Of a DNA stretch of 64,000 nt, positions 11,005-44,532 are shown piece after piece. The stretch's first letter is position 1. The number at the start of each line of letters is the position of its first letter. Source of the stretch: Escherichia coli (GTDB lineage Bacteria; Pseudomonadota; Gammaproteobacteria; Enterobacterales; Enterobacteriaceae). Location: the NCBI RefSeq assembly GCF_003334405.1, contig NZ_QOWM01000002.1; one strand, written 5' to 3'. Under the pieces are notes generated by a model that was given only the letters and a program-made list of their open reading frames with translations, searched no databases and was not told the DNA's origin. Position numbers and translations under genes: made by a program.

Positions 11005-12168
11005 TTAGCGGGCGGCTTCGTATATACGGCGGCTGACATCCAACGTAATGTCATGATTTTCGCCCAGTTGGGTCATGCCGTGCTCTTCCAGTTTTTTCAG
11101 CAAAGCCGGGATGGAGCTGCCGTCCAGACCGTAGTCGGAGAGGTGGGTCGGCACGCCTAATTGCTCAAAGAAATTGCGGGTTGCGGCAATCGCGGCGTCA
11201 ATACGCTCATCATCGGAACCTTCAGTGATGTTCCAGACGCGTTCAGCATATTGCAGCAGCTTAGCGCGCTTGGTATCGCGTTTTTCATTCCACAGTGCAG
11301 GCAGGACGATAGCCAGTGTTTGCGCGTGATCCAGACCGTGCATCGCAGTCAGTTCGTGGCCCAGCATATGCGTTGCCCAGTCCTGCGGTACGCCAGCGCC
11401 AATCAAACCGTTCAGCGCCTGAGTCGCCGCCCACATGACGTTGGCGCGCACATCGTAGTTTTCTGGCTCTTTCAGGGCTTTCGGACCATCTTCGATTAGC
11501 GTCAGCAAAATGCCTTCTGCGAAACGGTCCTGAATTTTGGCATCAACCGGTTTGGTAACATACTGTTCCACGGTGTGTACAAAGGCGTCCACTACGCCGT
11601 TAGCCACCTGACGCGGCGGCAGGGTGTAGGTATAAACCGGATCGAGCACGGCAAATACCGGCTGAACATGGGCAGAATGGAACGCCTGCTTGTCGCCTGT
11701 GGTTTTACGGGAGATCACCGCGCCTGCGTTGGATTCTGAACCGGTTGCTGGCAGCGTCAGCACACAGCCCATCGGGATGGCGCTTTTAATCTCTTTACCG
11801 CCCGTTTGCAGAATGTGCCACGGATCGATATTTTCCGGATAGTTAGCCGCTGCGGCGATAAATTTGGTGCCGTCCAGTACAGAACCGCCGCCAACCGCCA
11901 GCAGGAAAGTCACTTTCTGTTCGCGAACCAGTTTCACGGCGTTCATCAGCGTTTCATAAGCCGGGTTTGGCTCAATACCGCCAAATTCCAGCACGTCCAT
12001 GCCTTTCAGGGCATCCAGAACTTGATCGAGAACGCCGGTTTTTTTCACGCTGCCGCCGCCGTAGGTAATCAATACGCGAGCATCGTGAGGAATTTGTTCG
12101 CGTAAACCAGCGATTGCGCCTTTACCAAACAGAATGCGGGTTGGGGTGTGCAGATTAAAGTTGTTCAT
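11005..12168 (-). CDS. yqhD: NADPH-dependent aldehyde reductase YqhD (iron-containing alcohol dehydrogenase family)
   Basis: Fe-ADH family ORF. Start placed at the internal Met ([15 protein letters not shown]), giving 387 aa; the six-frame call is 8 codons longer. Confidence 0.94.
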
Positions 12169-35114: not shown

Positions 35115-36464
35115 TTGGCGGGTTTTAACATCAAACATTGGTTTGCAGATGGCGCGTTTCGCACCATTATTCGCAATAGCGCCTGGTTAGGCTCCAGTAA
35201 TGTCGTGAGCGCCTTGCTGGGTCTGTTGGCGCTCTCGTGTGCCGGTAAAGGGATGACGCCCGCCATGTTTGGCGTACTGGTGATTGTGCAATCGTACGCC
35301 AAGTCGATCAGCGATTTTATTAAGTTTCAGACATGGCAACTGGTGGTTCAGTACGGAACACCAGCATTAACCAACAATAATCCGCAGCAATTCCGCAATG
35401 TCGTCTCATTTTCCTTCTCGCTGGATATCGTCAGCGGCGCGGTGGCGATTGTCGGTGGCATTGCCTTACTGCCATTCCTTTCCCATTCATTAGGTCTGGA
35501 TGACCAAAGTTTTTGGCTGGCAGCGCTCTATTGCACGCTCATTCCTTCAATGGCTTCCTCCACGCCGACCGGCATTCTGCGTGCGGTAGATCGCTTCGAT
35601 TTAATTGCTGTACAGCAGGCGACGAAACCTTTTCTGCGCGCAGCGGGGAGCGTCGTAGCCTGGTATTTTGACTTTGGTTTTGCGGGTTTTGTTATTGCCT
35701 GGTACGTGTCGAATCTGGTTGGCGGCACCATGTACTGGTGGTTTGCCGCGCGCGAATTACGCCGCCGAAATATCCATAACGCCTTCAAATTGAATCTGTT
35801 TGAGTCTGCCCGATACATTAAAGGCGCGTGGAGTTTTGTCTGGTCAACCAACATTGCCCACTCCATCTGGTCGGCGCGTAACTCGTGCAGCACAGTGTTG
35901 GTGGGGATCGTGTTAGGACCCGCTGCCGCCGGGTTATTTAAAATCGCCATGACATTCTTCGACGCCGCCGGAACGCCAGCGGGTTTGCTGGGTAAAAGTT
36001 TTTACCCAGAGGTGATGCGTTTAGATCCGCGCACCACCAGACCGTGGTTGTTAGGTGTGAAGTCCGGTTTACTGGCGGGCGGAATCGGTATTCTGGTGGC
36101 GCTCGCGGTGTTGATCGTCGGCAAGCCGCTCATTTCGCTGGTGTTTGGCGTTAAGTATCTCGAAGCGTATGACCTGATTCAGGTGATGCTGGGCGCAATT
36201 GTGATTTCGATGCTGGGCTTCCCTCAGGAGTCATTGCTATTGATGGCGGGAAAACAGCGCGCTTTTCTCGTGGCGCAAACCATCGCCTCAATCGGCTACA
36301 TCGTATTGCTGTTCATGTTCTGTCATCTGTTTGGTGTGCTGGGAGCAGCGTTTGCTTACTTCGGTGGGCAATGTCTGGACGTGGCGCTCTCGTTAATTCC
36401 AACCTTAAAGGCATTTTTTCAGCGCCATTCCTTGCTTTATAACGCAGCCGGAGAGAAATCCTGA
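35115..36464 (+). CDS. yghQ: MOP-superfamily (Wzx/MurJ-like) polytopic membrane flippase YghQ, full length
   Basis: 449-aa ORF with about 12-14 hydrophobic helices; its stop overlaps the next gene's start. My recollection is that the K-12 copy is annotated shorter. Confidence 0.78.
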   Translation: MAGFNIKHWFADGAFRTIIRNSAWLGSSNVVSALLGLLALSCAGKGMTPAMFGVLVIVQSYAKSISDFIKFQTWQLVVQYGTPALTNNNPQQFRNVVSFSFSLDIVSGAVAIVGGIALLPFLSHSLGLDDQSFWLAALYCTLIPSMASSTPTGILRAVDRFDLIAVQQATKPFLRAAGSVVAWYFDFGFAGFVIAWYVSNLVGGTMYWWFAARELRRRNIHNAFKLNLFESARYIKGAWSFVWSTNIAHSIWSARNSCSTVLVGIVLGPAAAGLFKIAMTFFDAAGTPAGLLGKSFYPEVMRLDPRTTRPWLLGVKSGLLAGGIGILVALAVLIVGKPLISLVFGVKYLEAYDLIQVMLGAIVISMLGFPQESLLLMAGKQRAFLVAQTIASIGYIVLLFMFCHLFGVLGAAFAYFGGQCLDVALSLIPTLKAFFQRHSLLYNAAGEKS

Positions 36465-37288
36465 TGATGAGAAAATATTTCCCGCTTGAGGCGAGCGAGC
36501 GTCTATTTGTTGCGATTGAAGAAGATGATGTCGTTGATGCACAGGTTAGTTTGCCGCCGACTATTGCACTAAGTTGTACCACCGAAATCATTCATGATAA
36601 TTACGCGTTATGCCTGCAATTCTGGCTCAATGGCGTTGATCGTCAGGAGTTACTGCGTTTAGTTCGCAAACAAGCCAAAGGCGATGAGCTGACTGCTGAT
36701 GAGCGCAAACAATTTAAATACATGCGAGCGCGCTACAAGCACCTGCGTTTTGCGCAACGGCTGTATTTAAAGAAGCATCAGGCCGGATTTTTATTCGGCA
36801 AAACGACCGTTTTTCTGGGGCGTTTTCAGGACGGCTTTCGTAACGGTAAGAAAAATATTGTGTCGTATTACGGCAACCTGTTACGGATTTATTTAAGCTC
36901 TCCGGTCTGGTCGTTGGTGAACTATTCATTACGCCATAGCCAGTTAGAAAGCGTAAGCAGTTTTATTGCCTATCGGCAAAAGCAAATGCATACCCTGAAA
37001 GAGATTATTGCCAAACCGCGACTAACCGGTAGGGAATTTCATGATGTGCGAAAAATCATCAGCCAGCAGGTTTCTTATTACGACACCTTAAGATCGCTTG
37101 ATCCTGAAAATAAAGAGGCGTTACAGATATCCCGCTTCCTCGCCGCCATTAATGGCCTGATGGGAGATAAACACGACGACATGGTGGCGGATGATATGGA
37201 AAACCGCCAGTCGTATGATGCACCGGTGGCGCTGGATAGCGATATTCGTCAGCGCTTAGAGCTGCTGATTTCGCGTTTTCCGCTATAG
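36464..37288 (+). CDS. Hypothetical protein, co-operonic with yghQ
   Basis: 274-aa soluble ORF with no motif I recognise, translationally coupled to yghQ by a TGATG overlap. Confidence 0.6.
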   Translation: MMRKYFPLEASERLFVAIEEDDVVDAQVSLPPTIALSCTTEIIHDNYALCLQFWLNGVDRQELLRLVRKQAKGDELTADERKQFKYMRARYKHLRFAQRLYLKKHQAGFLFGKTTVFLGRFQDGFRNGKKNIVSYYGNLLRIYLSSPVWSLVNYSLRHSQLESVSSFIAYRQKQMHTLKEIIAKPRLTGREFHDVRKIISQQVSYYDTLRSLDPENKEALQISRFLAAINGLMGDKHDDMVADDMENRQSYDAPVALDSDIRQRLELLISRFPL

Positions 37289-37296
37289 CCGGAGCA

Positions 37297-37860
37297 ATGA
37301 TGTCATCTCGTTTGATTATTGCGTTGATTATCATGCTCTTAGCCCCGGGTGTGCAGGCACACAATTTCGTCACTGGCAAAACGGTTACCCCTGTTTATAT
37401 CCAGGAAGGCGGCGAGCTGCTTCTGAATAGCGACGACGAAATTCACTACCAAAAGTGGAACAGCACACAATTAGCGGGAAAAGTCCGCATTATTCAGTAT
37501 ATCGCCGGGCGTAAGTCGGCGAAGAAAAAGAACTCACTGTTAATTAAAGCGGTTGAAGCGGCAAACTTTCCGCAGGATCGTTTTCAGCCCACCACCATTG
37601 TGAACACCGATGATGCCATCTTTGGTACTGGCTATTTTGTTGTTGGCAAAATCGAAAAAAATAAACGCCGCTATCCGTGGGCGCAATTCGTTATTGACGG
37701 CAATGGACAGGGACGCGTTGCCTGGCGCTTGCCGGAGCAGAGTTCAACCATTCTGGTGCTGAATAAAGCCGGGCAAATTCAGTGGGCAAAGGACGGCAGC
37801 CTGACGCCGGAAGAGGTAGATCATGTCATTGCGTTGGCGCAGAAACTGATCAATGAATAA
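37297..37860 (+). CDS. YtfJ-family periplasmic protein (paralogue)
   Basis: 187-aa ORF with a signal peptide (LIIALIIMLLAPGVQA) and YtfJ-like blocks (KWNSTQLAGKVR, TTIVNTDDAIFG, QWAKDGSLTPEEV). Confidence 0.65.
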   Translation: MMSSRLIIALIIMLLAPGVQAHNFVTGKTVTPVYIQEGGELLLNSDDEIHYQKWNSTQLAGKVRIIQYIAGRKSAKKKNSLLIKAVEAANFPQDRFQPTTIVNTDDAIFGTGYFVVGKIEKNKRRYPWAQFVIDGNGQGRVAWRLPEQSSTILVLNKAGQIQWAKDGSLTPEEVDHVIALAQKLINE

Positions 37861-37890
37861 AAAACTCAAAGGATTGAGGGCGTTAGTGAG

Positions 37891-38961
37891 ATGAAGCTGG
37901 TTGAACACTACATCATGCGTGGTACGCGCCGTCTGGTGCTGATTATCGTCGGTTTTCTGATCTTTATTTTCGCCAGCTACTCCGCACAGCGTTATCTGAC
38001 CGAAGCGGCAAATGGGACATTAGCTCTTGATGTTGTGCTGGATATCGTTTTCTACAAAGTACTGATTGCACTGGAGATGTTGTTACCTGTTGGTCTGTAT
38101 GTGTCAGTTGGCGTGACGCTAGGGCAGATGTATACCGACTCGGAAATTACCGCTATCTCTGCGGCGGGGGGCAGTCCGGGACGCTTGTACAAAGCCGTTC
38201 TTTATCTGGCGATACCGCTAAGTATTTTTGTCACCCTTCTGTCGATGTATGGTCGTCCGTGGGCTTATGCGCAGATTTATCAACTGGAGCAGCAGTCGCA
38301 GTCGGAGCTGGATGTTCGCCAGTTGCGGGCAAAGAAATTTAACACTAACGATAACGGACGAATGATCCTTTCGCAGACGGTTGATCAGGATAATAATCGC
38401 CTGACTGACGCGCTGATTTATACTTCTACTGCCAATCGAACCCGCATTTTCCGCGCCCGTTCGGTTGATGTGGTTGACCCATCACCCGAGAAACCGACCG
38501 TTATGTTGCACAACGGCACTGCCTATCTTATCGATCATCAGGGGCGTGATGACAACGAACAGATCTACCGTAATCTGCAATTACATCTGAATCCGCTGGA
38601 TCAAAGCCCTAACGTCAAACGCAAAGCGAAATCGGTCACGGAGCTGGCGCGCTCCGTCTTTCCAGCCGATCATGCCGAACTGCAATGGCGGCAAAGCCGT
38701 GGCCTGACCGCATTGTTGATGGCGCTGCTGGCCATTTCATTAAGTCGGGTAAAACCGCGGCAAGGGCGATTTTCAACGTTATTGCCACTGACGTTGCTGT
38801 TTATTGCCATTTTTTATGGCGGTGACGTCTGCCGTACGCTGGTGGCTAACGGCGCGATTCCCCTCATTCCTGGTTTGTGGTTAGTACCCGGACTCATGCT
38901 AATGGGCCTGCTGATGCTGGTCGCACGCGACTTCTCTTTGCTGCAGAAATTTTCCCGATGA
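37891..38961 (+). CDS. LptF-like permease (YjgP/YjgQ family)
   Basis: 356-aa ORF with the LptF/LptG architecture: N-terminal TM helices, a periplasmic beta-jellyroll-sized insert, and C-terminal TM helices. Confidence 0.75.
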   Translation: MKLVEHYIMRGTRRLVLIIVGFLIFIFASYSAQRYLTEAANGTLALDVVLDIVFYKVLIALEMLLPVGLYVSVGVTLGQMYTDSEITAISAAGGSPGRLYKAVLYLAIPLSIFVTLLSMYGRPWAYAQIYQLEQQSQSELDVRQLRAKKFNTNDNGRMILSQTVDQDNNRLTDALIYTSTANRTRIFRARSVDVVDPSPEKPTVMLHNGTAYLIDHQGRDDNEQIYRNLQLHLNPLDQSPNVKRKAKSVTELARSVFPADHAELQWRQSRGLTALLMALLAISLSRVKPRQGRFSTLLPLTLLFIAIFYGGDVCRTLVANGAIPLIPGLWLVPGLMLMGLLMLVARDFSLLQKFSR

Positions 38962-40037
38962 ATGTTTTCAGCCGCTATTTAATCCGTCATCTCTTTCTCG
39001 GTTTTGCCGCCGCCGCAGGGCTATTGCTGCCGCTTTTTACCACCTTCAACCTGATTAACGAACTGGATGATGTCAGCCCGGGCGGTTATCGCTGGACTCA
39101 GGCGGTGCTGGTGGTGCTAATGACCTTACCGCGCACACTGGTCGAACTTTCGCCATTTATCGCCTTATTGGGAGGGATTGTCGGCCTGGGGCAGTTATCG
39201 AAAAACAGTGAGCTTACCGCCATTCGCAGCATGGGGTTTTCTATCTTCCGTATTGCACTGGTGGCGCTGGTTGCAGGGATATTGTGGACTGTTTCGTTAG
39301 GCGCGATAGATGAGTGGGTAGCGTCGCCATTACAGCAACAGGCGTTGCAAATCAAATCGACCGCCACCGCGTTGGGGGAGGACGATGACATTACCGGCAA
39401 TATGCTGTGGGCCAGGCGTGGTAATGAATTTGTGACGGTGAAATCGCTGAACGAGCAGGGCCAGCCGGTGGGCGTGGAGATTTTTCATTATCGCGACGAT
39501 CTCTCGCTCGAATCCTACATTTATGCACGCAGTGCCACCATTGAAGACGACAAAACGTGGATCCTGCATGGTGTGAATCATAAAAAATGGCTGAATGGCA
39601 AAGAAACGCTGGAAACATTAGATAATCTTGCCTGGCAATCGGCCTTCACCAGTATGGATCTTGAAGAGTTATCAATGCCGGGCAATACTTTTTCTGTCCG
39701 TCAGCTTAATCATTACATCCATTATTTGCAGGAAACCGGGCAACCCAGCAGCGAATACCGCCTTGCACTGTGGGAAAAACTGGGGCAACCCATCCTGACC
39801 CTGGCGATGATTTTGCTGGCTGTGCCGTTTACCTTTAGCGCCCCGCGCTCGCCAGGGATGGGTAGCCGTCTCGCTGTAGGTGTCATCGTTGGCTTACTCA
39901 CCTGGATCAGCTATCAAATCATGGTCAATCTGGGATTGCTATTTGCGTTGAGCGCACCTGTTACCGCGCTCGGTTTACCGATAGCGTTTGTGCTGGTGGC
40001 GTTGAGCCTGGTGTATTGGTATGACAGACAACATTAA
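38958..40037 (+). CDS. LptG-like permease (YjgP/YjgQ family)
   Basis: Start at MNVFSRYLIRH gives 359 aa, overlapping the upstream stop as ATGA. Same architecture as the preceding gene. Confidence 0.75.
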   Translation: MNVFSRYLIRHLFLGFAAAAGLLLPLFTTFNLINELDDVSPGGYRWTQAVLVVLMTLPRTLVELSPFIALLGGIVGLGQLSKNSELTAIRSMGFSIFRIALVALVAGILWTVSLGAIDEWVASPLQQQALQIKSTATALGEDDDITGNMLWARRGNEFVTVKSLNEQGQPVGVEIFHYRDDLSLESYIYARSATIEDDKTWILHGVNHKKWLNGKETLETLDNLAWQSAFTSMDLEELSMPGNTFSVRQLNHYIHYLQETGQPSSEYRLALWEKLGQPILTLAMILLAVPFTFSAPRSPGMGSRLAVGVIVGLLTWISYQIMVNLGLLFALSAPVTALGLPIAFVLVALSLVYWYDRQH

Positions 40038-40071
40038 ACCCGCCGTGGCGCAACACCACGGCGGGCTCACA

Positions 40072-41244
40072 TTACTGCTTCAGAGTAGCAAATGCCTGAA
40101 TGATGGCATCGATTTGCTCACGACTGTGAGCAGCGTTTACGCTACAGCGCAGCAGCGTGATGCCTGCAGGCGCGGCAGGTGGCAGGATAAGATTCACATA
40201 AACGCCCAGCGAAATAAGCTCGCGCCAGATGCGTAAACCGTCCTCTTTCGAACCGATTATTACCGGCACTACCGGGCTAATATGTGAACTTAACTCATAA
40301 CCCAGTTTTTGCAGACCGTCATACAGATGGTTGGCATTATCCATCAGCTTTTGCCGCAGCTCTGGTTGTGTGGCAATAGTTCTTAACGACGAGCGCACGG
40401 TCGCAATGCAGGACGGAGAAGGAGAGGCGGTAAAAATATACGGGCGGCTGCCGTAGCGCAGCACTTCCATCGCTTCCGAACCGACAGCAAAACCGCCAAT
40501 CGAGGCCAGACTTTTACTGAAGGTGCCAACGATAATATCCACATCATCTTCAACGCCGACAGCTTCAGCCAGTCCGCGCCCCGTTGCGCCTAACACGCCA
40601 AACGAATGCGCTTCATCGACAATCAAATAACCACCGAGACGACGTTTGATATCAACAATTTCCGCTAACGGCGCAACGTCACCGAGCATGCTGTAGATAC
40701 CCTCAACGATGATAATCGCCTCTTTCGCCCGTTCACCGAGGCGAACCATGCGCCGTTCCAGATCTTTAGCATCGTTATGGCGGAAACGAATAATTTCCGC
40801 GCCACCGAGAGAACAGGCGTCATAAATACTGGCGTGGCTGTCGGCATCCAGTAACACCACGGCGTTATGGTCGGCAAGTGCGCTGATGACGCCTAAATTA
40901 GCGGTATAACCGGTTGAAAAAACGATAGCGGTAGGGCGATTGAAAAACTCGGCAATCTCTTTCTCTAACGCCAGGTGCGGCGCATAACTGCCGTTTGCCA
41001 TACGAGAACCGGTGGTGCCGGTACCTTGGGCCGCTAACGCGGCCTGACCTTCGCTGATGGCATCATGATTAAAGGTTAAACCGAGATAATTATTGGTCCC
41101 GGCCAGAATCACTTTTTTATTGCCGATCCGGCCTTCGGTGGCGGAATACACTTCATCAATACAGGTGCCAAACGGTGTTAACCCGTTGTCACTAAATTGC
41201 AGTCGCTCGCCAGCAAGGCGCGCATATTTATCGTATAGCCCCAT
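40072..41244 (-). CDS. Alpha-oxoamine synthase family PLP enzyme (serine palmitoyltransferase / AONS / CqsA-like)
   Basis: 390-aa ORF with the AOS-family fold signature, including the PLP-lysine region (GTFSKSLAS) and the DEAHSFGVLG block. Confidence 0.85.
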   Translation of the reverse strand: MGLYDKYARLAGERLQFSDNGLTPFGTCIDEVYSATEGRIGNKKVILAGTNNYLGLTFNHDAISEGQAALAAQGTGTTGSRMANGSYAPHLALEKEIAEFFNRPTAIVFSTGYTANLGVISALADHNAVVLLDADSHASIYDACSLGGAEIIRFRHNDAKDLERRMVRLGERAKEAIIIVEGIYSMLGDVAPLAEIVDIKRRLGGYLIVDEAHSFGVLGATGRGLAEAVGVEDDVDIIVGTFSKSLASIGGFAVGSEAMEVLRYGSRPYIFTASPSPSCIATVRSSLRTIATQPELRQKLMDNANHLYDGLQKLGYELSSHISPVVPVIIGSKEDGLRIWRELISLGVYVNLILPPAAPAGITLLRCSVNAAHSREQIDAIIQAFATLKQ

Positions 41245-41492
41245 TATTTATTCTCCAGCCATGGAAGTAGAGTTTCCATTAATTGCGCAGGGGTTTTGAC
41301 ATCCAGCAGAATATTAATAGGAATGGAAATATCGAATCTGTCTTCCAGCATCATTAAGAGATCCATCACTTTGATCGACTCCAGGCCAAGATCGTTGACG
41401 AGATCGCTGTCGGGCTTAATTTCCACACCGTTTTCGACCAAATCCTGTAAACAGGAAAGGATGTAATCCATTACTATTTCACGATTTACCAT
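41244..41492 (-). CDS. Dedicated acyl carrier protein
   Basis: 82-aa acidic ORF with a phosphopantetheine-attachment motif (DLGLESI). Its stop is adjacent to the AOS gene start. Confidence 0.8.
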   Translation of the reverse strand: MVNREIVMDYILSCLQDLVENGVEIKPDSDLVNDLGLESIKVMDLLMMLEDRFDISIPINILLDVKTPAQLMETLLPWLENK

Positions 41493-41523
41493 AGAAACGT
41501 TAACACACCTTTAAACAAGACAA

Positions 41524-42438
41524 TCAAAATAGCCCGTTGCGTAATGCGTGTTCCAGGCTAATCCCGGGAAACCAATTAATATCTTCAGAAATACGGTTAT
41601 TACTTGCCGACCAGTCGGCGTGGGTTAATTCACGAATTTTCGAGCGGGTCAGCATAGGTTCTTTACCTGCCAGGCGACTCAACGCGGTACTGATATCCGC
41701 AAGGCCGGTGAGTACCGGCAGAGGAATGCCAACCATTCGCACGGAACCGCAACGGGCGTCGGCGGCAAGTTGCTGTACGCGTTGCCAGTCATAGCCGCCG
41801 GCGACGCCATCGCATAATTCATAGGTTTGCGTCTGTATAGTTTCGGCGCTTAACCACTGACCCACTGCTTGCGCGAAATCGGTGACGTGCAGAAAAGAGA
41901 GCTGTGTATCTGGCGCACCAAGTCGTGGCAGCAGGCCGCGCAGCATCCAGTCAAACAGCGGTTTTAACTCTTTATCGCCGGGACCATACACGGCTGTCGG
42001 GCGAAAAACGCCCAGCGTAATTTCGTCCGCCATTGCTGCCAGTCGTTGCTCGGCGACGTATTTGGATTTTGCATACCAGGAGAGCTCGGGATGGCGCGCC
42101 GCCAGCGAAGAGATAAACAGAAAACGTTGGCAAAAGCCGCTCTCTTTTGCTGCTTGCATCAGGCGCAGGCTGCCGTCAACGTTACAGCGGGTGAAAATCT
42201 CTTCTTTGTGCCCGCGCACTTGCCCGGCGCAATGGACCACTACGCTGGCTCCGGCAACCAGCTCGCTAAGTGAATGAGTATCTTCCAGCGAACCGCGCAC
42301 CCAGGTGAGATTATCATTGACGTGAGCGCGGGCAGTACGCGTCAATACGCGAACGTGAAAGCCGCGGGCGAGCAGGTTATCGATAATATATTTACCGATA
42401 AACCCGGTAGCGCCCGTCACCGCGACAGTTTGATTCAT
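41524..42438 (-). CDS. NAD(P)-dependent epimerase/dehydratase-family (extended SDR) reductase
   Basis: 304-aa ORF with an N-terminal Rossmann motif (VTGATGFIGKYI). Confidence 0.8.
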   Translation of the reverse strand: MNQTVAVTGATGFIGKYIIDNLLARGFHVRVLTRTARAHVNDNLTWVRGSLEDTHSLSELVAGASVVVHCAGQVRGHKEEIFTRCNVDGSLRLMQAAKESGFCQRFLFISSLAARHPELSWYAKSKYVAEQRLAAMADEITLGVFRPTAVYGPGDKELKPLFDWMLRGLLPRLGAPDTQLSFLHVTDFAQAVGQWLSAETIQTQTYELCDGVAGGYDWQRVQQLAADARCGSVRMVGIPLPVLTGLADISTALSRLAGKEPMLTRSKIRELTHADWSASNNRISEDINWFPGISLEHALRNGLF

Positions 42439-44165
42439 GCCAGGGATTCCTGCACATTAAGACTGGCAGCATAAGCCTTCTGATAACGTTTTTTCGCTTC
42501 CGCACGGGCAGGCTTGCCGGAGGACGTTCGGGGAATACTGTGGGGCGGCAACAGATCGATAGCCGCGGTCACGCCAAATTCGCTTTGGATCCGTGCCGCC
42601 AGCGCGTGGATAAGCTGCCCGCGACGTTCTTCGTCGCTGATCCGACACTGGATCTGCAAAATGATTTTTTCCTGGGCGGTAACAAAAGCAATCGCATCGC
42701 CAGAATGAATTTCCGGTTCCTGTTCCGCTATATATTCAATATCCTGCGGCCAGATATTACGGCCACGAATAATAATCAGATCTTTAATGCGTCCGGTGAC
42801 ATACAGATAACCGTCCAGCAGATAACCGAGGTCGCCGGTGTCTAACCAGCCCGTCGCGGCAATCTCGTCTTGCGAAACCTGGTCGCCAAAGTAACCGCTC
42901 ATCAGACTGGGACCGGAGATGCAAATATGGCCTACCACACGTTCCGCGACCGGCATACCTGCTTCATTGCGGATTTCAATACCATGTTCCGGCAACGCTT
43001 TGCCGCAGTTGACGAAAGTCGATACGGCGCGTGTCTCTGCACCCGGCGCGACGGCTTTACCCTGATATTCGAGGATGTCGCGATCCACTTCGTTAACCAC
43101 AACCCCGGAGGCTTCATCAGAGAAGCTGACAGCCAGCGCATTTTCTGCCAGTCCGTAGCACGGCATGAAAGTTTTATTGTCAAAGTTAACCTGACGGAAA
43201 CATTCAGCGAATTGATGGAGTTGTTCTGCGGAGATGGGTTCTGCACCAATACCAGCGACGCGCCAGCAGGAAAGATCCAGTTCAGCGAGATCTTTTTCAT
43301 TCACGCGGCGCTGGCACAATTCATAGCCAAACGGCGGCGCAACGGAAACGGTGCCGCGATTTTTACTGATCAATTTAAGCCATTGCAGAGGACGCATGGC
43401 AAAATCCTGAGTGCGCAAATAATCTACTGAAAGCTGCGTGGCGACGGGGGTCAGGAGAAAGCCGACCAGTCCCATATCATGGTAGAAAGGCAGCCAGGAG
43501 ACGCAGCGGTCGCCAGGGCGTAATTTAATGCCGTCGTGGCTTATAGCACGTAGATTAGCCATCACTTCGCGATGGGTGATAATGACGCCACGGGGAAAAC
43601 GGGTGCTGCCGGAGGTGTACTGGAGGTAGGCGATATCGTTCGGAACTGGACGCTGGAGCGCAACATCGGCTTCCGGTAATGCCTTAAACCAGGCGTGGCT
43701 TAAAACATGTAATTCGGGGTTGTCATGCGTCGCGGCATTGACCAGTGGCAACCACTCATCACCAGTGATAATGGCTGCGGGCTGGCAACTTGCCAGTAAA
43801 CCCTGCAATTTGGCGCTCCAGGAATCCCGCTGACCAACGCCCATTGGAATCGCCAACGGGACGGCGACTAAGCCGGCATACTGGCAGGCAAAAAAAGCCT
43901 CTACGAACTCGCTACTTGTTTCGGCAATCAGTGCCACGCGATCGCCTTTTTTCAGGTTCAGCGATAACAACCGCTTCGCACCAGCTTCGGCACGTGCTTT
44001 TAACGTCTGATATTCCAGTTGATCTTCAAGTTGGCAACGTCTGTCATAAAAATTCATTCCGGCGCTACTCAGAGCGGCGTAGTCCAAAGCATCAACAAGC
44101 GTTGGAAAATCGGCATAGCGCATAGGTAGGGAATGCGTAAAGATTTTATTAGACATATACACCAC
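42435..44165 (-). CDS. Fatty acyl-AMP ligase / acyl-ACP synthetase (adenylate-forming enzyme)
   Basis: 576-aa ORF with the AMP-binding signature (YTSGSTRFPRGV) and a FAAL-like insertion. Overlaps the reductase gene by 4 nt. Confidence 0.85.
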   Translation of the reverse strand: MVYMSNKIFTHSLPMRYADFPTLVDALDYAALSSAGMNFYDRRCQLEDQLEYQTLKARAEAGAKRLLSLNLKKGDRVALIAETSSEFVEAFFACQYAGLVAVPLAIPMGVGQRDSWSAKLQGLLASCQPAAIITGDEWLPLVNAATHDNPELHVLSHAWFKALPEADVALQRPVPNDIAYLQYTSGSTRFPRGVIITHREVMANLRAISHDGIKLRPGDRCVSWLPFYHDMGLVGFLLTPVATQLSVDYLRTQDFAMRPLQWLKLISKNRGTVSVAPPFGYELCQRRVNEKDLAELDLSCWRVAGIGAEPISAEQLHQFAECFRQVNFDNKTFMPCYGLAENALAVSFSDEASGVVVNEVDRDILEYQGKAVAPGAETRAVSTFVNCGKALPEHGIEIRNEAGMPVAERVVGHICISGPSLMSGYFGDQVSQDEIAATGWLDTGDLGYLLDGYLYVTGRIKDLIIIRGRNIWPQDIEYIAEQEPEIHSGDAIAFVTAQEKIILQIQCRISDEERRGQLIHALAARIQSEFGVTAAIDLLPPHSIPRTSSGKPARAEAKKRYQKAYAASLNVQESLA

Positions 44166-44532
44166 GAAAAAATTGGATATCCAAAATAAAATGACAATAA
44201 TGCGGTGGATTATATAGGCATAAAAGATAAATGAGATAGTATTTTCATCAGTGTGAAAATGAACATTGATTTAAATAATGAGTTTGAGTTTTTTTGTTTT
44301 TATTGTGAATGATATTTAATTTATGAATATATTAAGAAGAAGCCTTGTCCGGTCGCCTTAAATCGACAAAAGGCATTGTGGCGCTTCTGTGTAGTCTCTG
44401 ACCTTATCGTAATCATTAATAAATACTATTTATTCGTCGTTTGTATTCATTGGGTTGATTATTAAGGTGCCGTTCGTTGCTGTTGCAACCTGTTTGTCAC
44501 CGTTAATTATTTGTTACCCACAGAACAGAACT

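Follow-up and report, generated by a model that had tools for sequence, protein, structure and literature searches.

The closest described counterparts of the locus analyzed here belong to Caulobacter crescentus, in which CC_1168, CC_1156 and CC_1155 (LptC2, LptF2 and LptG2), together with the flippase-like protein CC_1166, were proposed to take phosphosphingolipids to the outer membrane (Olea-Ozuna et al., PMC11324152). In Caulobacter, delta-spt and delta-cpgB were the only backgrounds from which lptF2, lptG2 and lptC2 could be removed, and deletion of LptF2 and LptG2 is tolerated only when the sphingolipid or its anionic head group is missing. Furthermore, LptF2 and LptG2 were recovered together on purification, along with the single housekeeping LptB, and lptF2/lptG2 genes are present in many alpha- and gammaproteobacterial sphingolipid loci, with the operons of Escherichia coli UTI89 drawn as homologous in Figure 2B (Uchendu, Isom and Klein, 2026 preprint, bioRxiv 10.64898/2026.04.12.717747). 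Here, we analyze a second LptF/LptG-type permease pair and its partner genes at positions 36464-40037 of a 64,000-nucleotide stretch of E. coli DNA (NCBI RefSeq assembly GCF_003334405.1, contig NZ_QOWM01000002.1), which is referred to in full as the window.

The biosynthetic side of the pathway and the canonical lipopolysaccharide (LPS) permease have also been described. In E. coli BL21, ECD_02851, ECD_02853 and ECD_02854 are AasR, AcpR and Spt, which jointly make 3-oxo-sphinganine, and ECD_02852 and yghO were taken to be the counterparts of two enzymes of dihydroceramide synthesis, the reductase and the N-acyltransferase, respectively (Padilla-Gomez et al., PMC9386255). The residues of canonical LptF and LptG that contact the lipid A phosphates or the core have been listed, and the K34E substitution in LptG is lethal (Tang et al., PMC6744409). 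That a second LptF/LptG pair is of the sphingolipid exporter type is thus already in the literature, of which the initial annotation of the window, drawn from the letters and a list of open reading frames (ORFs), was unaware. To this the present study adds the quantified co-occurrence of permease and biosynthesis genes, a remodelled LptG2 cavity and fold assignments for two accessory proteins. On the model of the Caulobacter homologues, we consider it likely that LptF2 and LptG2 export a sphingolipid in E. coli.

Results

The four ORFs at 36464-37288, 37297-37860, 37891-38961 and 38958-40037 are intact at the coordinates of the initial annotation and encode proteins of 274, 187, 356 and 359 residues, respectively. 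The surrounding region (33500-44500) is 100% identical to the chromosome of E. coli strain 300709, and the UTI89 locus has a gene order identical to that of the window. The last two genes, lptF2 (37891-38961, + strand) and lptG2 (38958-40037, + strand), overlap by the annotated ATGA at 38958-38961 and encode an LptF/LptG-type pair whose orthologues carry PF03739. LptF2 reaches 318 bits on TIGR04407 (cut-off 230) and is 29% identical to canonical LptF, and LptG2 reaches 308 bits on TIGR04408 (cut-off 240) and is 28% identical to canonical LptG. Because these scores exceed the NCBIfam equivalog cut-offs, RefSeq names the genes lptF and lptG, and the resulting label 'LPS export permease LptF/LptG' is misleading. 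In the program-made ORF list, lptG2 reaches back to a GTG at 38877, whereas all orthologues start with MN[IV]FSRY at the ATG at 38958.

The initial annotation held the pair to be distinct from the essential lptFG locus and named beforehand, as an outcome against this claim, that it might prove to be the only lptFG copy in the genome. All 5426 complete E. coli genomes searched contain canonical pepA-linked lptFG (K-12 query). A universal, single and essential copy in the order pepA-lptF-lptG marks canonical lptFG; the pair in the window is a second copy, found in 4104 of the 5426 genomes and deleted in K-12. Its setting is that of the Caulobacter type, an adjacent pair inside an spt/acpR/cerR/aasR/bCerS locus, with canonical lptFG elsewhere and no lptB in the locus. 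Family models and motif inspection found no ATP-binding cassette (ABC) ATPase gene within the cluster, in agreement with the annotated lack of an LptB-type ATPase gene in the operon.

Is the permease pair tied to sphingolipid synthesis beyond its position in one genome? Of the 5426 E. coli genomes, 4104 contain the transport half of the locus (36464-40037, at least 80% coverage), 4068 contain the biosynthetic half and 4058 the whole 11-kb region; this species thus keeps or loses both halves jointly. In K-12, a deletion associated with the insertion sequence (IS) IS5 runs from the middle of yghQ to yghO and leaves yghQ truncated. A second example of IS disruption is found in strain MRE162 (NZ_CP119404.1), in which an IS1B transposase gene lies inside the 36464-40037 match and the match aligns in two pieces.

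A cross-species scan with an LptG2 alignment against one genome per species yielded 38 loci. One of them (L048, 26% identity), which looks like canonical lptG, was set aside, and the others were combined with three loci found via the 274-residue protein into a set of 40 loci that was examined in a tblastn matrix. The scan covers Escherichia, Shimwellia, Sodalis, Pluralibacter, Serratia, Erwinia, Mangrovibacter, Citrobacter, Pantoea, Cedecea, Rahnella, Tatumella and Rosenbergiella, as well as a record labelled Martelella alba, two Enterobacterales metagenome bins and three Pseudomonas species. LptF2 is encoded directly upstream of LptG2 in every locus of the matrix, and 37 of the 40 loci have spt, acpR and cerR no more than 10 kb away from the pair; the remaining three are cut off by contig ends. 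Gene order was shuffled several times across the loci with retention of the gene set, and the locus genes are conserved in about 40 species at 52-98% identity, far beyond chance. The co-occurrence with the biosynthetic genes that the initial annotation had named as a check, and whose absence it would have taken as refuting, is thus observed both within E. coli and across species.

The record labelled Martelella alba BGMRC 2031 (L019), nominally an alphaproteobacterium, carries a full Enterobacterales-type locus at 61-79% protein identity, which points to a wrong label or a contaminated assembly more than to horizontal transfer. Within Escherichia (L011-L014), the 274-residue protein and the product of the gene at 37297-37860 (YtfJ2) diverge faster, at 89-96% and 86-91% identity, than LptF2/LptG2 (93-98%) and Spt (98-99%).

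The LptG2 cavity differs from that of canonical LptG at the positions that contact LPS. LptG K34 and R133 are lost (LptG2 N31 and L130, respectively), and K40 and K41 are replaced by the acidic residues D37 and D38. LptG K62 and R136 are kept as R59 and K133, and LptF R33 is kept as LptF2 R34 in all aligned orthologues. The N31, D37, D38 and L130 replacements are conserved across LptG2 orthologues, and the 'NELDDV' motif, of which D37 and D38 are part, is retained all the way from E. coli to Pseudomonas. Because four basic lipid A-contacting residues of LptG are lost, two of them to aspartate, the pair should not carry LPS; the cavity has been re-specified, which argues against LPS as the cargo. 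The coupling-helix glutamates are kept in all aligned orthologues (LptF E84 as LptF2 E85; LptG E88 as LptG2 E85). We take these glutamates to be the sites at which LptF and LptG contact LptB, and their conservation fits the use of LptB by LptF2 and LptG2.

The permease genes close a longer transcription unit. Upstream of them lies yghQ (35115-36464, + strand), which encodes a MOP/Wzx-type flippase, a candidate inner-membrane sphingolipid flippase whose orthologues match PF01943/PF13440. The yghQ stop codon TGA (36462-36464) overlaps the ATG of the 274-residue gene at 36464 in a TGATG, as annotated. The gaps from the 274-residue gene to ytfJ2 and from ytfJ2 to lptF2 are 8 and 30 bp, respectively; RefSeq starts ytfJ2 at 37300, as opposed to 37297 in the ORF list. 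The initial annotation was right in placing these genes in one operon with yghQ, but the operon probably reaches further upstream. yghS (33566-34279, + strand) and yghR (34311-35069, + strand) precede yghQ with spacings of 31 bp (yghS to yghR) and 45 bp (yghR to yghQ). The best sigma-70-like match of the region, which is its sole good promoter-like site, lies just 5' of yghS (33488-33516), and promoter and terminator scans gave matches at background level except for the hairpin at 40035-40069. Given these spacings and the position of this site, yghS is probably the first gene of an operon of seven, yghS-yghR-yghQ-(274-residue gene)-ytfJ2-lptF2-lptG2. Within the sphingolipid locus of E. coli, this operon is the probable half for head-group assembly and transport.

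This operon converges on the biosynthetic genes, as the initial annotation had described. The distance from the end of lptG2 to the stop codon of the convergent spt is 35 bp and is spanned by the hairpin (40035-40069), a GC-rich structure of 16 pairs, 10 of them G-C, that is likely a bidirectional terminator. The facing operon, read at first as a general 'FAAL/ACP/AOS' lipid pathway, is specifically a sphingolipid pathway, a point that the annotation had missed. It consists, on the - strand, of spt (serine palmitoyltransferase, 40072-41244, named in RefSeq; BL21 enzyme assayed, PMC9386255), acpR (specialised acyl carrier protein, 41244-41492; RefSeq and PMC9386255), cerR/epi (NAD-dependent reductase, 41524-42438; NAD-dependent epimerase in RefSeq) and aasR (acyl-AcpR synthetase, 42435-44123; fatty acyl-AMP ligase in RefSeq). 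Beyond aasR lies yghO (44533-45675, + strand; RefSeq), the homologue of the bacterial ceramide synthase bCerS/aca, with yghO (ECD_02850) equated with CC_1154 (PMC9386255).

In the 40-locus set, yghQ, the 274-residue gene and ytfJ2 stay together as one block and are on the same strand in most rearranged loci. Two Sodalis loci (L005 and L016) have ytfJ2 on the opposite strand within the block. Inversion of the block with respect to lptF2G2 is seen in loci that include those of Sodalis, Serratia sp. M24T3 and Rosenbergiella. The loci of Pseudomonas capeferrum, P. mandelii and P. agarici resemble those of Enterobacterales in that LptF2-LptG2 (51-60% identity) are encoded beside spt, acpR, cerR, aasR and a yghO homologue, but tblastn found yghQ, the 274-residue gene and ytfJ2 in none of the three. 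The P. capeferrum locus (L036), the sole Pseudomonas locus examined in detail, contains an MsbA/HepA-like ABC exporter gene (707-2446, - strand) downstream of spt and a YegS/DAGK-type lipid kinase gene (11064-12077, + strand) downstream of lptG2. Because the MsbA-like exporter is found in the place of the yghQ block, this exchange suggests that the block does the job of an MsbA-like flippase. The same P. capeferrum locus also encodes a hotdog thioesterase and two proteins without a family match.

The 274-residue protein (36464-37288, + strand), annotated as unknown, matches no Pfam or NCBIfam model, including the CHAD model PF05235. The remote-homology search that the initial annotation had called for recovered 212 relatives down to about 20% identity from 1.84 billion representative proteins. 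An alignment of 66 of these sequences reveals a duplicated motif with invariant R88, H193, R196, D123 and D238 and nearly invariant K92, R95, K197 and H237. The best PDB match of the family profile is the CHAD domain 6QV5 (E 1.1e-3), with both motif copies aligned in order, and the Pfam CHAD model gives weak matches to the 66 members (1 at E<=1e-3, 18 at E<=0.1). The AlphaFold model is confident (pLDDT 97.1) and contains the two four-helix bundles and the duplicated His/Arg/Lys motifs of the CHAD fold. On this evidence, the protein is classed as a CHAD-fold protein, not as a proven member of the CHAD family. It has no hydrophobic segment and an isoelectric point of 9.3, and is therefore assigned to the cytoplasm.

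The fusion partners of the CHAD-like domain among the 212 relatives are tandem copies and an APH/choline-kinase-like kinase; no fusion to a flippase was found. In the metagenomic proteins P0250, P0264 and P0268, two tandem CHAD-like copies follow an APH/choline-kinase-like domain with the motif HGDLKPxNLFFD. P0250 and P0264 start with a signal-like N-terminus and P0268 does not, and P0123 is a plain tandem duplication.

YtfJ2 (37297-37860, + strand), annotated as a YtfJ-like secreted protein, scores 212 bits on TIGR01626 (cut-off 151) and matches PF09695 at 2e-59. It is a locus-specific paralogue that is 54% identical to K-12 YtfJ (b4216), and it begins with a hydrophobic signal-like segment. 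The model of the 187-residue protein is an alpha/beta thioredoxin fold without cysteines. YtfJ2 lacks the CxxC of TlpA/DsbE-type thiol-disulfide oxidoreductases and, since it has no cysteine, cannot be a thiol oxidoreductase; from the sequence, we read the AGRxSAK motif, which is invariant in the YtfJ family, as occupying the CxxC site. A role as a replacement of LptC2, or as a beta-jellyroll bridge of the LptC/LptA type, was considered and rejected on the basis of the thioredoxin fold of the model. A comparison of YtfJ2 and YghR with PDB sequences returned nothing useful, and the literature on YtfJ holds no published function for any member of the family. The CHAD-fold protein, YtfJ2 and their block with yghQ appear to be undescribed.

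YghS and YghR are P-loop kinase-like proteins, and yghT (32700-33392, - strand; named in RefSeq), which is divergent from the operon and present in most Enterobacterales loci, encodes a P-loop dTMP-kinase-like protein. The three paralogous proteins of the Enterobacterales sphingolipid locus are thus encoded within 32700-35069. YghR, YghS and YghT share a Walker A and a DR[YF] motif, contain no LSGGQ and match dTMP-kinase models weakly along most of their length. YghR matches TIGR00041 over residues 23-203 (E 7.5e-8, below the cut-off) and has a DRF motif, and YghT has a DRY motif, no ABC signature and weak matches to TIGR00041 and NF005923. The only element that they have in common with an LptB-type ABC ATPase is Walker A, and their best matches are dTMP-kinase models. 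The RefSeq name 'dTMP kinase', which two of the three carry, is probably wrong. Homology to the Caulobacter ceramide kinase CpgB was also rejected, as CpgB is a DAGK-like protein with a GGDG motif.

Elsewhere in the window, a low-GC block (0.32-0.45) at 51066-56887 (+ strand) encodes a SLATT-domain protein and a Qat anti-phage system, as named by RefSeq on 100%-identical DNA of other strains. The RefSeq names of the Qat genes are KAP P-loop NTPase, QatC and QatD; the assignment to ORFs is our own (NTPase 52328-54112, an unnamed ORF 54112-54864, QatC 54846-56165 and QatD 56162-56887). The block occupies the site of glcF/G/B/A in strain 300709, and 234 of the 5426 E. coli genomes carry at least 80% of 50400-58000.

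Discussion

The initial annotation took the convergence of the two operons as a hint of a dedicated export route for the product of the lipid operon. This idea is supported by the present analysis, and a route that borrows LptB has been reported for the Caulobacter homologues (bioRxiv 10.64898/2026.04.12.717747). How might such a route operate in E. coli? AasR, CerR, AcpR and Spt, together with YghO, would make (dihydro)ceramide on the cytoplasmic side, with biochemical evidence for AasR, AcpR and Spt from BL21 (PMC9386255) and the other steps presumed. The three dTMP-kinase-like P-loop proteins would probably build a phosphate-containing head group, and we infer that E. coli makes a phosphorylated sphingolipid, which YghQ may flip across the inner membrane. 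A heterodimer of LptF2 and LptG2 would then dock on the housekeeping LptB via the conserved coupling-helix glutamates, and the resulting LptB2F2G2 complex would, by homology with Caulobacter, extract the sphingolipid for delivery to the outer membrane.

What could be the function of the two accessory proteins? The CHAD-fold protein and YtfJ2 travel with yghQ and are therefore candidate helpers of the flipping step. Characterised CHAD domains bind polyphosphate and have basic patches that surround a central pore (PMC6537752). The CHAD-fold protein in the cytoplasm and the redox-dead YtfJ2 in the periplasm may each bind an anionic head group, one at each face of the membrane, and so assist flipping, a proposal in which we have far less confidence than in the export role of the permeases. 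A more specific version can be envisaged, in which the sphingolipid of Enterobacterales has a head group unlike the ceramide phosphoglycerates of Caulobacter, for instance a ceramide oligophosphate that YghT, YghS and YghR build stepwise, and in which yghQ, the CHAD-fold gene and ytfJ2 specify a three-part flipping module not described before. The CHAD-fold protein would capture the phosphate-rich head group and present it to the MOP flippase, and in the periplasm YtfJ2 would take over or protect it until LptB2F2G2 extracts it. We hold this version to be rather doubtful; if true, it would provide the first function for the YtfJ family and a lipid-linked role for the CHAD fold.

Several observations weigh against sphingolipid export by LptF2 and LptG2 or against parts of the proposed route. 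K-12 and about 24% of strains do without the locus, which is therefore dispensable and might stay silent in laboratory culture; in addition, our literature searches turned up no paper that reports the detection of a sphingolipid in E. coli. The Caulobacter evidence comes from a preprint and consists of genetics and co-purification, not of a transport assay (bioRxiv 10.64898/2026.04.12.717747), and orthology to CCNA_01213/01214 is taken from the UTI89 locus in a figure of that preprint. Furthermore, the head-group genes of Caulobacter are missing in E. coli, and because the two head-group gene sets differ completely, the substrate and its head group probably differ as well. The acidic residues of LptG2 fit a strongly anionic lipid poorly. 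The presumed roles of the CHAD-fold protein, YtfJ2 and the kinases are drawn from fold and gene linkage, and the neighbourhoods of the distant CHAD-like relatives (L008-L010) are short or unrelated to sphingolipid genes.

The dispensability of the locus could mean that it is a cryptic or decaying accessory cluster, with intact genes that yield no lipid in natural settings and leave the permease pair without a working substrate. K-12 lost yghQ through aasR by the IS5-associated deletion without an obvious phenotype, the region is missing from about 1,240 of the 5,426 genomes, some genomes carry IS insertions, and the silence of the literature on an E. coli sphingolipid agrees with this explanation. 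We nevertheless judge it unlikely: over many genera, all 13 genes keep their ORFs at 52-98% protein identity without loss of translational coupling, BL21 has active AasR, AcpR and Spt enzymes (PMC9386255), and the joint retention or loss of the two halves in E. coli also speaks against this explanation.

Alternatively, LptF2 and LptG2 may have a working substrate other than a sphingolipid and extract LPS or another glycolipid (e.g., modified lipid A or enterobacterial common antigen), with the adjacency to spt being incidental. Such a role would agree with the equivalog scores and RefSeq names of both proteins and with the retention of the basic cavity residues R34 of LptF2 and R59 and K133 of LptG2. 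It is very unlikely in view of the linkage to spt in 37 of 40 loci, which persists through several rearrangements and in two bacterial orders, and of the canonical pair being kept in every genome. The replacement of LptG K34, the site of the lethal K34E substitution, and of K40, K41 and R133 points in the same direction, as do the Caulobacter genetics that tie the paralogues to sphingolipid. A different partner for the permeases can also be conceived, namely that YghR, YghS and YghT, which at 230-252 residues are similar in size to LptB, power them in its place. Three P-loop proteins encoded in or beside the operon, with weak matches to ABC ATPase models that are confined to the P-loop, invite this idea, but the missing LSGGQ, the DR[YF] motif and the fit of dTMP-kinase models to most of their length make it hardly credible. 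Moreover, Rosenbergiella, Sodalis sp. dw_96 (L016) and two of the three Pseudomonas loci have none of their genes at a distance of up to 10 kb from lptF2G2, the LptB-contacting glutamate of the coupling helix is conserved, and the Caulobacter LptF2 and LptG2 bind LptB. Sphingolipid export powered by the housekeeping LptB thus remains the reading that we prefer.

Most natural E. coli, including the uropathogenic strain UTI89 and the production strain BL21, carry a complete locus for sphingolipid synthesis and export. K-12 has lost it, and therefore the standard envelope biology of E. coli was worked out in a strain that lacks it. Should E. coli produce the lipid in the host, LptB would serve both this lipid and LPS, as might the remaining components of the Lpt bridge. 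Such sharing, if true, matters for antibiotics that target the Lpt system and for the host recognition of bacterial sphingolipids.

Comparison with known systems places each component of the locus. The canonical LptB2FGC system of E. coli and Shigella and the second pair have in common PF03739, TIGR04407/04408, protein length and overlapping F-G genes, and the paralogues retain the coupling-helix glutamates and basic residues of the LptF R33 and LptG K62/R136 type. In contrast to the canonical pair, the second pair of E. coli is dispensable, missing from about 24% of strains, not adjacent to pepA and 28-29% identical. The 274-residue protein resembles the CHAD domains (PF05235; 6QV5, 3E0S/6QVA, PptA 6RN5 and YgiF 5A60) as a basic protein of two four-helix bundles with a duplicated motif of conserved His/Arg/Lys followed by G..(H)D. 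It differs from them in that it falls below every Pfam threshold, and its gene shows translational coupling to a lipid flippase gene and no linkage to genes for polyphosphate kinases, phosphatases or CYTH enzymes. YtfJ2 shares with YtfJ (b4216; TIGR01626) and with TlpA/DsbE/ResA-type proteins a signal-like segment and the fold of periplasmic thiol-disulfide oxidoreductases and differs from the latter in its lack of cysteines.

The Caulobacter locus differs from that of E. coli in several genes. E. coli has no LptC2, and lptC2 is apparently restricted to Caulobacter (bioRxiv 10.64898/2026.04.12.717747). The Caulobacter head-group genes for CpgB (DAGK-like), a Tam41-like protein, a CDP-alcohol transferase and nucleotidyltransferases are all missing from the E. 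coli locus, whose three dTMP-kinase-like proteins, CHAD-fold protein and YtfJ paralogue in turn have no counterpart in Caulobacter. An equation of the 274-residue protein and YtfJ2 with CC_1167 and CC_1157 was rejected, as the latter are a CDP-glycerol glycerophosphotransferase-like protein and a HIT protein. The framework is nonetheless the same. As with LptF2/LptG2 of Caulobacter crescentus (CCNA_01214/CCNA_01213; CC_1156/CC_1155), the E. coli permease genes form an adjacent F-G pair in an spt/acpR/cerR/aasR/bCerS locus without lptB, with a MOP-type flippase gene at the locus (CC_1166, IPR002797, in Caulobacter; yghQ in E. coli) and a separate canonical lptFG elsewhere in the genome.

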